Source of the DNA: Okamejei kenojei
Taxonomy: Eukaryota
Assembly (NCBI GenBank): GCA_035221665.1
Contig: CM069134.1
Coordinates: 121,458,001 to 121,522,000 of the forward strand
Length of the DNA stretch: 64,000 nucleotides
Direction: 5' to 3'
The position numbers were made by a program, and so were the translations under genes. Positions 2,505 to 62,974 of the stretch are shown here, piece after piece. Position 1 is the stretch's first letter, and the number at the start of each line of letters is the position of its first letter. The notes below the pieces were generated by a model. The model saw nothing but the letters and a program-made list of their open reading frames with translations. It was not told the DNA's origin and did not search any database.

Positions 2505-4107
2505 GTATGTTGTTTTCTCTCCATGATAATTTTACTTAAAACTACACCGGAATGTATGAAGAGGCATTCTTGTCATGAGAATTGTTGAAATAAAGTTTTC
2601 ATTAAAAAATTAGATTTTTAATAATATTTGATGATTTATATTCTCCTGTTGCAACGTGGTCTTGAATCACAGAACATTTACGATGTTTAATTGGGAAGAT
2701 GTCAAGTAGTTTAAGTAACATCTTTAATGGTACTCCCTTGGCATTTCATATAACTAAGTTGCTAAATGAAAAAGCTTTAAAATAAAGTTCTTAAAGTGTA
2801 TTTGCATCTGTAATTAAATATCCCAAACGTATAGTAAATGGAAATATTTTTAAACCCTTCTGGATAAATGTTGAGGATGGGTGTGTTTTGAAGAGTTTTG
2901 TCACTTTATTTTGTTTTAAATTGGTGATTTTTCTTTTAGTTTTCATTTGATCATTTCAGCCTCGATCATTTTGTTGTGATTTTTAACTTTTTGTAGATTT
3001 TGGTCCAAAGGTGAGACATGAAGAAACCAGAGTTTGATTTTACAGAATCATTGTGGAAGAATACAACATGCGTTTTAATGATGTCCCATAATTCTAGCTG
3101 GATTACATCACTGTTGTAAAATTCCTAGTTCTCATGCACGTAGCAGCCTGCTTGTTAGGTACCATATCCACCACCAATGCACAGTAGCAGCTGTGAGTAA
3201 CATCTACAGGATGTACTGCAGCAACTTACCATGACTCCTTAGAAAGCACCTTCCATGCCTATGTCCTCTACAGCTAGCAGAACAAGGGCAGCAAAAGCAC
3301 AGTAAAGGATAGCACTCCAAAGTAGATTTGGGGGGGAAAAGGCACAAGAACCTGGACATAACTTTCCTATTGGGTTGTGGCATTGATTATGAGATATGGG
3401 GTATGGTGAGAGGGCACTTTTACTTAGACCATAACCTGCACAATTGGAATGTATGATCCCAAGTTTCAATGAATGTAGAGTGCCTTCCTAACAATATGAT
3501 GCTCATTGCTTTACGGTGGTGAATCAGATGACTGTGTTCCAAATAGATTATCAAATCCATTATCTCTAATGCCACGCAACTTTAAGATTGTCTGTAATTT
3601 GACATTAACATTGAACACGATCATTTAACAGGTGATAATTACAAGTTGTGCGACTTGTTAACAGTTCTTCCATAACGTTGTCGACCATTAACGCTGTCAA
3701 TAAATTTGCACATGACCTGTTCATCAAGTGCAATTATGGTGTCATTGGACGTACACTTATTGCCAATTAGAGAATAAATATCTTTGGTCCGTGCAAACTA
3801 AAACCATGTAAACCAGCAACTGAAAAATTAATGACAGAGAAAAGTAAAATTGAAGTTTTGACAAGTATTTCAAAACTTTTATATGTGTCGAAGTTGATGA
3901 AGGCAGAGCAGTAGACCTGGTTTCCATGGACTTTAGCAGGGCTTTTGACTCAGTCCTGCAAGATAAGCTGATCCAGAGGCTTCAAGCTCATGGGATCCAA
4001 GGTTTGTTGACAAACTGGTTATATTATGCAGAGATAGTAGTGGAGGGTTTTTTCTTCTGACTGGAAGTCTGCAATCATCGGTCAGGGATAGACGCTGAGA
4101 CCCTCTA

Positions 4108-21340: not shown

Positions 21341-21374
21341 CGAGGACTTATTAGTGGAGCAGACGAAATGTATA

Positions 21375-21550
21375 GAAAGGAACTGCAGACACTGGTTTAC
21401 ACCAAAGATAGACACAAAATGCTGGAGTAACTCAGCGGGTCAGGCAGCATCTCTGGAGAGAAGGTCTGAAGAAGGGTCTCGACCCGAAACGCCATCCATT
21501 CCTTCTCTCCAGATACCGCTGATTTACTCCAGCATTTTGTGCCTATCTTC
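21375..21550. mobile_element. Fold-back mini-PLE with hammerhead-like core at its centre
   Basis: Arms agacacaaaatgctggagtaa.../...ttactccagcattttgtgcct; centre ctgaagaagggtctcgacccgaaac. Confidence 0.75.
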
Positions 21551-22029
21551 CAGGACTGTTCATCGAAGATAGACACAAAATGCTGGAGCTACACAGCGGT
21601 ATCAGCTTTATCTTTTTCTGTGGCTACCGTGAAGCTTACCAAATTATGGCCACAGTTTCCATATATTCTTCACAGACATTTGAATCACTTGTCCACCTTT
21701 GGCACATAAGATCAGGCCCTACCCTAGTAGGACTGTAAATGCTGACACAGATAACCATCTGGAATAGATGTTATGAATTCTTCCCCTCACTTTTACCCCT
21801 TGAACCCCCAAATCCATCAATGTTTTTTAGCACCCAACTTTTTACTCTGCCTCTATTTGACTTCACATGAGTGCATCACATTGCAATTTTTAAGTCAAGT
21901 GATTATGTTTCAAAATTTCCTAATTTATGAACAGCTCTAACAGATTGGAAATCAGTAAATGTAGCACTGCATTCCAAGGGAACAGGGAGAGAGGAAAATA
22001 AAGGAACTACAGATCAGTTAACTGGACAG

Positions 22030-23833: not shown

Positions 23834-24064
23834 GTAAGGAATGTAGCAAGTTTGGTACCATGAGAGAAGGGAGAGAGAGCGAGAGACTACTCTGTTTTAT
23901 ACAGTGTTTTCCCTCGCCTCAGAACCTTAGAGAGTGCCTTATGACCTATTGAAGCATCTGTGGTCTCGACACTGTTATAATGTAGGAAGCTCAGCAATCA
24001 TTTTATATTCAGCAAAGGGAACCTGCCATTTGAACTGGCGGATATAAACTGCCTAATAGGTATA

Positions 24065-24620
24065 CATAGAAACATAGAAAATAGGTGCAGGAGTAGGCCA
24101 TTCGGCCCTTCGAGCCTGCACCGCTATTCAATATGATCATGGCTGATCATCCAACTCAGTATCCTGTACTGCCTTCTCTCCATACCCCCTGATCCCTTTA
24201 GCCACAAGGGCCACATCTAACTCCCTCTTAAATATAGCCAATGAACTGGCCTCAACTACCTTCTGTGGCAGAGAATTCCAGAAACTCACCACTCTCTGTG
24301 TGAAAAATGTTTTCCTCATCTCGGTCCTAAAGGAATTCCCCCTTATCCTTAGACTGTGACCCCTTGTTTGGGACCTCCCCAACATCGGGAACAATCTTCC
24401 TGCATCTAGCCTATCCAACCCCTTAAGTATTTTGTAAGTTTCTATAAGATCCCCCCCTCAGTCTTCTAAATTCTATCGAGTACAAGCCAAGTCTATCCAG
24501 TCTTTCCTCACATGAAAGCCCTGACATCCCAGGAATCAGTCTGGTGAACCTTCTCTGTACCCCCTCTATGGCAAGAATGTCTTTCCTCAGATTTGGAGAC
24601 CAAAATTGTACGCAATACCC
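24065..24620 (-). mobile_element. Young CR1 3' fragment
   Basis: ORF 24137..24418; near-identical by eye to the reverse complement of about 4218-4770. Confidence 0.92.
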
Positions 24621-26006
24621 TGAAACACAACAGGAAAGATGTCACTGTTTTCATAGACATTAATTATTTCTTAATAATTAAGAGGCAAAAATAATCAACA
24701 TTTTAAAAGTATCTCAAAAGTACCTCAAAAAGAATCAACAAAATGCACATGCTGGTTTATACCAGAGATAGACACAACATGCTGGAGTAACAGCGGGTCA
24801 GGCAGCATCATTGGAGAAAAAGGACGGGTGACATTTTGAGTCGGGACCCTTCTTTAGACTGAAAGGGGGTGGCAGGGAGGGTGTGAAGAGCTGGAGGTGA
24901 GAAGAAATCAGGGCCGGGCAAACCGCAACAGACCTCAGCCAGGGCGTTGCCTGGTAAGCCCATTTTTGTGAAGGGAAGGGGTGACACCTCCGGAGATGCT
25001 GCATGTCCAGCACTTTATGATGAGCAACTCCAGCACTTTATGTAACATAAAATCAGTAAGAAAGAATTGCAGATGCTGGTTTAAATCAAAGGTAGGGACC
25101 CTTCTTCAGTCTGAAGAAAGGGTCTCGACCCGAAACCTCATCCATTCCTTCTCTCCAGAGATGCTGCCTGTCTCGCTGAATTACTCCAGCATTTTGTGTC
25201 TACTTCTAAAATCTGTTTCATTTATGAATCTTTACTTATTACTCAATTGTGAATTATGTATCTCCCACTGAATTCTTTATTCAACTTCTTTAATGTACCA
25301 AAATTAATAATAGCTTAGTATTTATAGAGGAATCATTATTCCTCCATAGTCTTGAAATATAATCATTATTAAATTAAGCCCTATTCCATGCATACATGAC
25401 CAGATCCAGATAAGGAGTTTGTGGTTGAAATTATCTGAAGGATATCTTCTATGATATATATCTGAATAGAGATAATTATTTAGTTTAATACTTTCCATGT
25501 CAATTCAAGGTAATTTTCCTTGAGAACATGATTTTCAATTGGGACCATTAAAATTCATAATTTTCATTCACAAGATCTTTTAATAAAGTGAAACGTAAAT
25601 CTGTCTATGATAAAGGGGTGCAAATGATTTTTTCCAAATAATACACAGTATCATGAGTTTATATTCTCTGGAGCTTAAAGGGATGAAATATTATCTCACT
25701 GAAATGCATTGTTCTTCAAAGATTTCCCATGGGGAGATGTCAGTCGGGGAACGTCAAACCACTTTGCAGTCTCAGAATAAAAAAAGGTTTCATCTGCAAA
25801 TACACTTGCTAGGGGCGAAAGGCAGGGCGTTTGTTTTGGAAATCCAAGTAGAATGTCTTTATGCACAGAACATAAGGGTCAGAAGCTGGGGGTTGACGTT
25901 CAGTAAGAAACGGGACTTGTTGCAGAGCTAAAGACAGTTTTCTAGCTTGTGATTTAGTTACAGGAAGATATGGTTCAGCTAAGGTTAGATATCGTCTGAC
26001 AACATA

Positions 26007-26219
26007 CAACATGTAGAAAGACACAAAATGCTGGAGTAACTCGGCGGGACAGGCAGCATCTCTGGAGAGAAGGAATGGGTGACATTTCGGGTCAATTTCA
26101 TGACCCGAAATGTCACCCATTCCTTCTCTCCAGAGATGCTGCCTGTCCCGCCGAGTTACTCTAGTATTTTGTGTCTATCTTCGGTGTAAACCAGCATCTG
26201 CAGTTCCTTATTACACATA
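26007..26219. mobile_element. Fold-back mini-PLE: 76-bp inverted arms, 6-nt loop
   Basis: Arms 26019-26094 and 26101-26176 (2 mismatches); TSD ctgacaacata at 25996-26006 and 26220-26230. Confidence 0.85.
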
Positions 26220-26703
26220 CTGACAACATATAAGCTCTAAAAAGATTTGATTATGGAATACCAATGTGTTTTGTGAATACCAGACAGCTATATACTTCTC
26301 CACACATGCTGAGCCACTCAGTTTATTATTGAACATATTCTTCAAATTCCCACATCTATTTTATCCCCATTCTGATTTTTTTTTCTGATTCAGCATCCAT
26401 TAATTTCTCAGCAAAGACATTTTTGCCACTTTATGCTTAAATAGCTGGCCTTTCATCTTGAGGATATGACTTGTAATTCTACACTCCCCAGCTAGAGGAA
26501 GCAGCCTATGGGAACCTATCCCATCGAGACCGTGAAGTTTTTTTTTAAATTGCATTTCAATGGTATCACATTTCATACCTTTAAGCACCAGGAAATATTA
26601 GCTCATTCTGCTAAATAAGAAATCAAGGCTTCTCTTTAAGAATATATGTATTTAGTTAAGGGAGTTAAATTTGATTTATCTTGATTTGTCTAATTTGATT
26701 TAG

Positions 26704-30059: not shown

Positions 30060-30235
30060 GTAGAAACAAGGAACTGCAGCTGCTGGTTAATACACAAGAG
30101 AACACAATGTGCTGGAGTAACTGAGCAGGTCAGGCAACATCTCTGGAGAACATGGATATGTCTGAAGAAGGGTCTCTAGCCAAAACATCACCTATCCATA
30201 TTCTCCAGATATGCTGCCTGACCAGCTGTGTTTTC
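30060..30235. mobile_element. Degenerate fold-back mini-PLE
   Basis: ctggagaacatggatatgt-ctgaagaagggtc...aaacatc-acctatccatattctccag. Confidence 0.7.
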
Positions 30236-30421
30236 TTTGAGAGAAACATTGTTTAACTCATTGTCTCTTTGTAGAATAAATGTTACAGAACAAATTAAGG
30301 GTGAACATTAAATTAAGATGAGTATCTGAACTGTAGGTTGGTGATGTTGGTGCCTAACATTACATAATGTCATATATGTTTTGAATCTAGAGCACTAAAT
30401 TAGGTTGTTTTTTCGCAACAG

Positions 30422-32887: not shown

Positions 32888-33131
32888 TGTTTTACTGTCA
32901 ATAATTGAAAATATATATAAATCAATTACTTTCTACAATTTGCAATTATATCTGCATGATGAGCCAGTGCATAGTAGGAGATAAAGCTCTTGGGATAAAT
33001 CTTATTTGTGTTTTACTGTCAATAATTGAAAATATATATAAATCAATTACTTTCTACAATTTGCAATTATATCTGCATGATGAGCCAGTGCATAGTAGGA
33101 GATAAAGCTCTTGGGATAAATCTTATTTGTG
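32888..33131. repeat. Perfect tandem duplication, 121-bp unit x2
   Basis: gttttactgtc...cttatttgt repeats at 32889 and 33010 with no mismatch seen. Confidence 0.92.
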
Positions 33132-43580: not shown

Positions 43581-44252
43581 TGTCAATAGTCAATAGTGAC
43601 TCAATGTGAATATAAGCAACTATGCATTCCTGCTTATCCAGGGTAAACTATCACTTATTTAGGTGGGAGTTCCAAAGGTTTTGCACTTCTCTTCCTTTCT
43701 TCAAGGTGTTCTTCAAAACTGATAGATATTCCTTCTCTATGGATGATATCTGAACATCCTTATTACAGTGGGAATTACAAATTAAGATGATAATTTTAAG
43801 GATGGAGAATTTTAAAAATTATTGTAAAGTTATTAATTTATTGTGTTTTAATTTGCACAATCACATTTACCTGTCAGCCTTGTACTCTCTTTGTCAGACA
43901 TGACCATCGGAGTAGACATCAGGAATTGTAATTGCTGGAATCTTATGTAGAACAGAAAGTGCTGGAGTAACTCAGCGTGTCAGGCAGCATCTATGCAGAA
44001 CATGGATAGGCGAAGTTGTAGGTTGGTATGGTTTGAAGAAAGGTCGCGACCTGAAGCATCACCTATCCATGTCCTCTAGCGATACTGCCTGGCCCACTGA
44101 ACTACTCCAGCACTTTCTGGTCTTCAGGCCTCCTAATGCGGTTCAATATCATATTTGGTTGTGTTGCACTCCCCAGACACATCAAGCACCGTTTTATTAC
44201 AACATATGCATTGTTTAAATATAGATTTGTGTTCTTGTTGTCATCATCTTAA

Positions 44253-58545: not shown

Positions 58546-58619
58546 TGAATCATAGAATTCCCCCTCAAAAAAGAAAGACATATCTATTCTAAGTTTGCTA
58601 GTTATATTATCATTCTAAA

Positions 58620-58830
58620 GATAGACACAAAAAGCTGGCGTAACTCAGCGGGCCAGGCGGCATCTCTAGAGAGAAGGAATGGGTGACGTTTCGGGTCGAA
58701 ACCCTTCTTCAGACCCGAAACGTCACCCATTCCTTCTCTCCAGAGATGCTGCCTGGCCCGCTGAGTTACTCCAGCTTTTTGTGTCTATCTTCAGTGTAAA
58801 CCAGTGTCTGCAGTTCCTTCTTTCACACGC
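58620..58830. mobile_element. Fold-back mini-PLE, about 80-bp arms
   Basis: Arms about 58619-58698 and 58712-58790; TSD tat(c/a)attctaaa at 58608-58619 and 58831-58842. Confidence 0.82.
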
Positions 58831-60888: not shown

Positions 60889-62974
60889 GTGTTAAAGAAG
60901 GAACTGCAGATGCTGGAGAATCGAGGGTAGACAAAAGGCTGGAGAAACTCAGCGGGTGCAGCAGCATCTAAGGAGCGAAGGAGATAGGCGACGTTTCGGG
61001 TCGAGACCCTTCTTCAGCCTGGTCAGGGGTCAGGGAAACAAGAGATATAGACGGTGATGTGGAGAAATAAAGAACAATGAATGAAAGATATGCAAAAAAG
61101 TATCGATGATAAAGGGAACAAGCCATTGTAAGCTGTTTGTAGTGTGAAAATGAGAAGCTAGTGCGACTAGGGTGGGGGAGAGAGATAGAGAGAGAGGGAA
61201 TGCCAGGGCCCAAGGGCTGAGGGAGAGGTGGGAAGGGGAGGAGACGGCAAGGGTTAACAGAATTGAGAAAATTCAATGTTCAAGCCCAGAGGATGCAGAC
61301 TCCCCAAGCGGAATATGAGGTGCTGTTCCTCCAACTTGCGGTGTTGCTCACTCTGGCCGTGGAGGAGGCCCAGGACCGAGAGGTCGGATACGGAATGGGA
61401 GGGGGAGTTGAAGTGCTGAGCCACCGGGAGATCGGGTTGGTTATTGCGGACCGAGCGGAGGTGTTCGACGAAACGATCGCCAAGCCTCCGCTTGGTTTCA
61501 CCGATATAGATCATCTGGCATCTGGAGCAGCGGATGCAGTAGATGAGGTTGGAGGAGGTGCAGGTGAACCTCTGAGGGATCTCGAAGGACTGCTTGGGTC
61601 CCTGAAAGGAGTGGAGGGGGGAGGTGAAGGGACAAGTGTGGCATTTCTTGTGGTTGCAAGGGAAAGTGCCCGGGGAAGGGGTAGAGCGGGAGGGAAGGGA
61701 AGAATTGACAAGGGAGTTGCGGAGGGAGCGGTCTTTGCGGATGGCAGACGGGGGGGGAGATGGGAAGATGTGGCAAGTGGAGGGGTCACGTTGGAGGTGG
61801 CGAAACTGGCGGAGGACTATGTGTTGTATTTGCCGGCTGGTGGGGTGCAAGGTGAGGACCAGGGGGACTCTGCCCTTGTTGCGAGTGGGGGAATGGGGCA
61901 GTGTTGCGGGGTATGGAGGAGACCCTGGTGCGAGCCTCATTTATAGTAGGGGAGGGGAATCCCTGTTCTCTGAAGAATGAGGCCATTTGTGATGACCTGG
62001 TGTGGAGCACCTCATCCTGGGAGCAGATGCGGCGTAGACGGAGGAATTGGGAATAGGGAATGGAGTCCTTACAGGAAGCAGGGTGGGAAGAAGAGTAGTC
62101 CAGGTAGCTGTGGGAGTCAGTTGGTTTGTAGTGGATGTCGGTCAGGAGTGTATCACCTGCAATAGAGATGGTGAGGTCAAGGAATGGTAGGGAAATGTCG
62201 GAAATGGTCCAAGTGTATTTGAGTGCCGGATGGAAGTTGGTGGTGAAATGGATGAAGTCAGTCAGTTGTGTGTGGGTGCAGGAGGTGACACCAAAGCAGT
62301 CGTCGATGTAACGGAGGTAGAGGTCAGGTCCGACAGAGGTTCACCTGCACCTCCTCCAACCTCATCAACTGCATCCGCTGCTCCAGATGCCAGATGATCT
62401 ATATCGGTGAGACCAAGCGGAGGCGTGGCGATCGTTTCGCCGAACACCTCCGCTTGGTCCGCAATAACCAACCCGACCTCCCGGTGGCTCAGCACTTCAA
62501 CTCCCCCTCCCATTCCGTATCCGACCTCTCGGTCCTGGGCCTCCTCCGCGGCCAGAGTGAGCAACACCGCAAGTTGGAGGAACAGCACCTCATATTCCGC
62601 TTGGGGAGTCTGCATCCTCTGGGCTTGAACATAGAATTTTCTCAATTCTGTTAACCCTTGCTGTCTCCTCCCCTTCCCACCTCTCCCTCAGCCCTTGGGT
62701 CCTGGCATTCCCTCTCTCTATCTCTCTCCCCCACCCTAGTCGCACTAGCTTCTCATTTTCACACTACAAACAGTTTACAATGGTTTGTTCCCTTTATCAT
62801 CGATACTTTTTTGCATATCTTTCATTCATTGTTCTTTATCACTCCACATCACCGTCTATATCTCTAGTTTCCCTGACCAGTCTGAAGAAGGGTCTCGACC
62901 CGAAACGTCGCCTGTCTCCTTCGCTCCTTAGATGCTGCTGCACCCACTGAGTTTCTCCAGCCTTTTGTGTACCC
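60889..62974 (-). mobile_element. Penelope-like element with inverted terminal duplication (pseudo-LTR)
   Basis: Minus strand: LRYIDDC RT motif near 62300-62318 and GIY-YIG ORF 61254..61940. Plus-strand duplicate 62334-62974. 14-bp TSD atgtaccattaata at 60875-60888 and 62975-62988. Confidence 0.93.
62882..62909 (+). ncRNA. Minimal hammerhead ribozyme-like core (mirror copy on - strand at 60990-61017)
   Basis: CTGAAGA-A-GGGTC-TC-GACCC-GAAAC-GTC. Confidence 0.6.

Follow-up and report, generated by a model that had tools for sequence, protein, structure and literature searches.

The window analysed here, a stretch of 64,000 nucleotides from Okamejei kenojei, carries several short palindromes in which the end of a Penelope-like element (PLE) is joined to its own reverse complement. 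These hairpins raise the question of whether such units are by-products of PLE retrotransposition or, as the original prediction entertained, a self-propagating non-autonomous class. Unit coordinates used below run from position 1, the A of AGTCTGAAG, to position 133, the end of the tail, which gives an end unit of 133 nt. Arms were mapped against references for four subfamilies (A to D) and for a carrier-borne variant, E.

All six short units and the 2.1-kb element were found where they had been placed, and most of their described anatomy holds (Table 1). Five of the seven are flanked by target-site duplications (TSDs) of their own, 10 to 15 bp long, whereas the units at 21370-21550 and 43.9-44.1 kb have no convincing TSD. 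The two clearest examples have the expected dimensions, with 79-bp arms and an exact 11-bp TSD at 26 kb and a 12-bp TSD with one mismatch at 58.6 kb. The offset of about 35 nt between the two arms is also borne out (outer ends at 97-99 versus 133), and the 2.1-kb element has the same short/tail geometry as the hairpins. What had been called a partial version near 25 kb is instead a full hairpin with a deletion inside its tail arm. Two of the sequence variants thought to be private to single units, tcggcgggac (2.2% of 397 arms) and cgggcc (3.8%), are indeed rare and common to both arms, but the third, gacattt/aaatgtc, is a CpG-site change found in 18% of arms. Every window unit turns in or beside the hammerhead motif, and so do 71 of the 75 sampled hairpins (those whose inner end is at or before position 35). 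However, the fixed point is position 1-5, which an arm reaches in 54 of the 75, and not the predicted cut site after position 31.

Table 1. Hairpins and related features of the window; coordinates preceded by an L handle belong to other loci.
Feature	Coordinates	Strand	Basis or remark
TSD of 26-kb hairpin, left copy, 11 bp	25996..26006		exact repeat of 26220-26230
8 extra nt, mostly TSD end copied again	26007..26014		sequence; 7-nt repeat
Tail-less arm, unit 97->19, subfamily A	26015..26093	-	arm mapping
8-nt spacer of 26-kb hairpin, genome-unique	26094..26101		1 match at <=1 mismatch
Tail-bearing arm, unit 19->133	26102..26216	+	arm mapping
TSD of 26-kb hairpin, right copy, 11 bp	26220..26230		exact repeat of left copy
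Hairpin: tail-less arm 98->2, 3-nt GAC microhomology, tail arm 19->133	58618..58826	+	TSD 58608-58619/58831-58842, 12 bp, 1 mismatch
Hairpin: tail arm 133->39, tail-less arm 2->99 with 11-nt deletion	21370..21550	-	no TSD found
Older hairpin, subfamily D: tail arm 133->32, short arm 2->74	30061..30232	-	TSD 30051-30065/30262-30276, 15 bp, 1 mismatch
Decayed hairpin, subfamily D-like	43921..44124	-	arms aligned over 43952-44124; left start by eye; no TSD found
Hairpin, deletion inside tail arm	25056..25206	-	TSD 25048-25057/25207-25216, 10 bp, 1 mismatch
2.1-kb inverted insertion, subfamily C, short/tail geometry	60889..62974	-	exact 14-bp TSD 60875-60888/62975-62988
C-terminal part of PLE ORF, GIY-YIG endonuclease preceded by CxxC motifs	61254..61940	-	Pfam GIY-YIG E=0.002, below curated cut-off
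Non-autonomous TIR carrier, ~700 bp	L150:2330-2880, L080, L039, L068, L215-L225		one PLE hairpin captured and amplified; 4 copies in 1.2 Mb
Solo stub examples	L180 oriented 3929-4055; L129:5071-5202

Several other features of the window deserve mention. Pieces of the target site appear to have been copied again between the TSD and the tail-less arm at 26007-26014 and 30233-30261, possibly by slippage at priming. A third, partial inverted arm (21512-21606) follows the 21.4-kb hairpin, has its 11-nt deletion in common with the adjacent arm only, and forms a second, tail-to-tail palindrome. Positions 32888-33131 hold a perfect 123-bp tandem duplication, and one related organism's contig joins 24058 to 24612, which is the apparent empty site of a different repeat of about 550 bp (24059-24611). 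The 26-kb hairpin also gives sub-threshold miRNA matches in Rfam.

The hairpins are extremely numerous beyond the window. A sample of 120 stretches of 10 kb, placed without selection at set positions along the 30 largest contigs (1.2 Mb of a 2.76-Gb genome), contains 446 end-unit arms. Among them are 78 head-to-head pairs spaced by no more than 40 nt, spread over 54 of the 120 stretches. This count takes in a few composites (for example, L129:3977-4204), and three hairpins at stretch edges were left out to give the 75 that were analysed. The density of 65 per Mb corresponds to about 1.4-2.2 x 10^5 hairpins genome-wide (Poisson limits). Head-to-head adjacency exceeds chance, with 84 of 125 neighbouring (-,+) arm pairs in the sample and window lying within 40 nt of each other versus 4 of 95 neighbouring (+,-) pairs. 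Solo stubs of 95-133 bp with their start at the hammerhead match or exceed the hairpins in number, and some have a clear TSD of their own. At L129:5071-5413, only about 20 bp separate the insertion of a solo stub from that of a hairpin belonging to another subfamily; together with the composite at L129:3977-4204, where a stub landed at the end of an older stub, this arrangement hints at an insertion preference near existing ends.

Target-site evidence supports the view that hairpins entered the genome as units. TSDs of 9-20 bp surround 30 of the 48 canonical hairpins, defined as pairs of one short and one tail-bearing arm, while ten flank-swapped controls yield 0-2 at the same score. Empty paralogous sites were recovered for 10 of 80 hairpins in the form of host-repeat paralogues whose flanks are joined, mostly with one TSD copy and no hairpin. 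The hairpin at L057 has 48 such paralogues, and those at L148 and L071 have one longer-spaced paralogue each. Across the region from 20.8 to 30.8 kb, matching contigs of four related organisms extend into the edges of the hairpins at 21, 25, 26 and 30 kb, so these units look common to at least one relative; among the matches listed there is no orthologous empty site. The variable TSDs and the empty paralogous sites thus uphold the proposal that the hairpins are retrotransposed in single insertion events and are not true MITEs.

The parent element has the hallmarks of an EN+ PLE. At L175, a single ORF codes for a reverse transcriptase (RT) and, C-terminally, for a GIY-YIG endonuclease, although the matches (RVT_1 E=0.018, GIY-YIG E=0.0015) are both under Pfam cut-offs and the ORF is broken by stops and frameshifts. 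The element looks to be of Neptune type, to judge by the CxxC motifs before GIY-YIG. The original prediction had treated the unit as the PLE 3' terminus, and its PLE origin stands, but the unit is equally the 5' leader of the element: it comes before the ORF in full-length copies, and immediately before it in the full-length tandem copy at L175. Among 30 copies with an intact ORF start, 13 have an upstream tandem pseudo-LTR (pLTR), 7 begin at positions 1-8 without upstream sequence, 7 begin inside the unit and 3 beyond it. Partial tandem pLTRs are thus present, as are two other traits of this class: an inverted 5'-truncated copy with a one-sided tail of 30-40 bp (the 48 short+tail pairs among 75) and a TSD of variable length around the whole unit.

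Judged from insertion ends, the element RNA appears to begin at about position 1-3. Solo arms start there in 141 of 275 cases, 88 of which lack the upstream body. Extra bases at the 5' junction of TSD-verified solos are G-rich. Hairpin arms that end at position 2 have an extra C next in the cDNA in 14 of 17 cases, which is partly explained by microhomology, and the matching G is found in 15 of 31 solos (p=0.02). The context of positions 1-3 resembles an initiator. An internal promoter resides in the pLTR of Drosophila virilis Penelope (PMC2377424).

A candidate minimal hammerhead core, recognised by eye through comparison with published examples (PMC4209133), is present in all four subfamily references, although an Rfam search gave no hammerhead match and helix I of the predicted structure has only 2-3 bp by eye. 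Arm ends do not peak at the predicted ribozyme cut site (31-32), and for lack of such a pile-up the idea that ribozyme cleavage produces the turn was rejected. Also rejected as the main cause of the 5' stop was a splice acceptor at position 3, which had been considered because the D. virilis intron terminates at this point of the hammerhead (PMC4209133); the tested junction occurs at only three exact places and one near place, and the TSD-verified solos have no common upstream exon. In rare copies at L226 and L227/L228 (G000:C3:2612210, C16:47182905 and 47183162), a predicted splice donor lying some 30 nt beyond the tail is joined to the acceptor at the hammerhead 5' end, as though these copies came from ORF-skipping or back-spliced PLE RNA; a control pattern has 0 matches. 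This donor-acceptor junction is found in both arms of one inverted structure at L227.

The claim that both arms were copied from one template is probably correct. Of 47 pairs with confident calls, 44 have both arms in one subfamily, where 38% would be expected, and 3 are discordant. For 59 hairpins with at least 40 nt of overlap (window units included, variant E excluded), arms differ by 16.3% within a locus versus 19.4% for same-family arms between loci, and the partner is the nearest arm in only 11 of the 59. Rare non-CpG variants are common to both arms in 16 of 170 instances (9.4%) within loci versus 92 of 3728 (2.5%) between loci. From these divergences and rare variants it follows that the arms probably had one template but mostly decayed independently, although sub-subfamily structure or gene conversion could contribute some of the likeness within loci. 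No editing-like mutation signature was seen in hairpin arms.

The outer ends of the two arms are coupled. The 75 sampled hairpins comprise 48 short+tail pairs, 6 short+short pairs (4 of them passengers of the carrier described below), 2 tail+tail pairs and 19 with a truncated arm. When the 4 passengers and the 19 truncated-arm hairpins are left out, the ratio of 48:2:2 departs sharply from the 2:1:1 expected if ends were chosen independently (p=8e-9). Solo arms end at 90-101 in 114 of 275 cases and at 120-133 in 112. TSDs occur above control levels in both solo classes (22 of 103 short ends, with controls of 0-2, and 11 of 82 tail ends), and because short-ended solo arms have TSDs, the proximal site appears itself to be a priming site.

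The inner ends are less regular. Among the 48 canonical hairpins, the tail-less arm reaches at least 5 nt further in the 5' direction in 22, the tail arm reaches further in 13, and the two agree within 4 nt in 13. At 30 loci that carry a recurrent GAC junction, the tail-less arm reaches position 2 while the other has the tail in 21, and the reverse is true in 4 (p=0.0009 on those 25); in the unselected sample this bias towards the tail-less arm is weak (14 versus 8, p=0.29). At L165, a 16-bp TSD encloses a tail-less arm of 2.4 kb and a tail arm of 375 bp. Some asymmetry of this kind could stem from post-insertion deletions in the middle of the palindrome. Simple fold-back of one cDNA, as the term fold-back insertion had implied, cannot by itself explain these arms because neither contains the other in 22 of 48 cases.

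The hairpin look and the presence of 4 of 78 sampled hairpins (about 5%) inside one TIR element of about 700 bp with TTAA-like ends are points of resemblance to MITEs and Kolobok-type non-autonomous DNA transposons, such ends being the Kolobok signature (PMC9587614). These four are passive cargo with junction and flanks in common, and only their separate carrier combines a fixed short TSD with symmetric TIRs. All other copies differ in having asymmetric ends, the retroelement sequence of the PLE end unit and long TSDs that vary from 9 to 20 bp, which rules out a MITE origin for about 95% of copies and makes it scarcely credible that a DNA transposase moved the hairpins as true MITEs. A self-propagating hairpin retroposon, in which master hairpins would be transcribed and re-inserted whole by the PLE enzyme, has several points in its favour: copy number is very high, each hairpin transcript would include the RT start region, and a junction formed by GAC microhomology recurs in 164 exact copies. 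However, 72 of 75 junctions are distinct (of all 75, 20 have microhomology, 11 are near blunt and 44 have filler), the commonest is that of the passengers just described, and the 26-kb loop occurs once in the genome. The 30 fetched loci with the GAC junction span subfamilies A and B (with single arms of D or C), both orientations and separate TSDs, show no consensus differences specific to an arm, and have common flanks in one pair only, a local duplication; this junction is polyphyletic, arising by microhomology in several subfamilies. Each of the four subfamilies also has hairpins, which are about as diverged as its solos, and a master structure repeated loop and all within different flanks was not found among these junctions. 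Self-propagation is therefore very unlikely, and this part of the original prediction is already largely refuted.

More serious is the possibility that a cDNA reaches the palindromic hammerhead stem, folds and copies itself, after which the endonuclease trims one arm by 35 nt, a route close to models in PMC3846280 and PMC8557442. The GAC junction is exactly what pairing of a 3' GAC end with the GTC of stem II would give, the hairpins whose tail arm reaches further or whose arms agree within 4 nt count in its favour, and self-priming has been inferred from palindromes at inverted junctions (PMC3846280). Nevertheless, extra 5' sequence on the tail-less arm is combined with a tail on the other arm alone in the same 22 canonical hairpins and 21 recurrent-junction loci, and the arms at L165 are non-nested by about 2 kb. 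Because tail and extra 5' sequence sit on different arms, a second primed cDNA is needed, and we regard self-priming as an improbable account of the hairpins. Fold-back may still serve as the joining step within dual priming; the sequence fits a cDNA end annealing to itself or to its partner alike. Priming of both strands on two different RNAs, or in two events that followed each other at a single site, is less probable again. The small share of rare variants common to both arms, the three discordant pairs and the composite at L129:3977-4204, which looks like two separate insertions, speak for it, but the strict short+tail pairing, the concordance of subfamilies and the single TSD pair that encloses both arms speak against it.

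We consider it probable that every hairpin arose as a single insertion in which two copies of the 133-nt EN+ PLE end unit stand head to head. It was likely made anew at its site, with reverse transcription of one and the same RNA primed from both nicked target strands and the two short cDNAs then joined. Because they were likely made afresh at each site, the hairpins would be footprints of a known insertion pattern and not a new self-copying element. Specifically, the RNA would begin at about position 1-3, such that the unit serves as 5' leader as well as 3' repeat. The RT-endonuclease, probably a dimer, would nick the two target strands 9-20 bp apart; of the two RTs, one would use the distal start (~133), the second the proximal start (~97), and both would run off the RNA 5' end after 100-130 nt. 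The cDNA 3' ends could then be joined by microhomology (often GAC on the GTC of stem II), through filler or bluntly. Confined to one strand, this reaction would leave solo stubs of 95-133 bp; long inverted copies like the 2.1-kb element would result if priming took place on the 3' copy. The hammerhead would be a passenger that happens to sit at the RNA 5' end.

A more ambitious version, to which we give slightly less than an even chance, holds that hairpins and solo stubs are integrated 'strong-stop' cDNAs, that both target strands are primed on a single RNA by an RT dimer using the two start sites, and that a run-off intermediate jumping to the RNA 3' repeat regenerates the pLTR. If so, one mechanism would account for the tail, the inverted pLTR and the tandem pLTR, and would have been recorded about 10^5 times in this genome. 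In L1 twin priming, a nick in the second strand primes on the RNA, and retroviral minus-strand strong-stop synthesis yields a short cDNA that has run off the 5' end of the RNA and is able to jump to the repeated end. The proposed reaction differs in that two cDNAs would copy the same stretch, yielding a palindrome instead of an inversion of different segments.

As an element the hairpins are not new, and they are the shortest form of a known PLE insertion pattern; inverted pLTRs, one-sided tails and TSDs are all in print (PMC3846280, PMC8557442, PMC8969392). Our literature search of main texts returned no account of minimal PLE hairpins in cartilaginous fish, and prior annotation is possible. 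Their value lies in constraints on PLE insertion that come in large numbers, namely obligate pairing of proximal and distal starts, a hard 5' stop at the unit start, and non-nested arms. PMC8557442 calls the making of inverted and tandem pLTRs undefined, and PMC11167929 calls it unvalidated. Mis-annotation as MITEs or miRNA precursors could also affect about 10^5 such hairpins.

Insertions of EN+ PLEs described for Pen2a_Av of Adineta (PMC3846280), in a general scheme (PMC8557442) and for D. virilis Penelope (PMC2377424) likewise have a head-to-head inverted 5'-truncated copy, a tail of 30-40 bp at one end, a TSD of about 9-10 bp or more, a palindrome or overlap at the junction, and partial tandems. 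In contrast to those, both copies here are the 133-nt end unit without an ORF, at about 65 per Mb, and the non-nested arms argue against pure self-priming. The minimal hammerheads of metazoan PLEs (PMC4209133; see also PMC6155905) resemble the predicted motif in their extra nucleotide between 9 and 10.1, the G10.1-C11.1 pair, the lack of helix III and the palindromic 15.2-16.2, and they too occur as dual motifs 100-700 bp apart on opposite strands and in many solo truncated copies. The present motif departs from them in its short predicted helix I and in arm ends that do not accumulate at the cut site. A biochemical parallel is Poseidon of Anolis carolinensis, which in vitro has two internal RT start sites that bracket the tail, cleaves and extends both target strands, is predicted to act as a dimer, and uses uncleaved hammerhead RNA as template (PMC11167929). 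The present element differs from Poseidon in its Neptune-type look, and hairpin products and coupling of the start sites are not described in the available part of that report.
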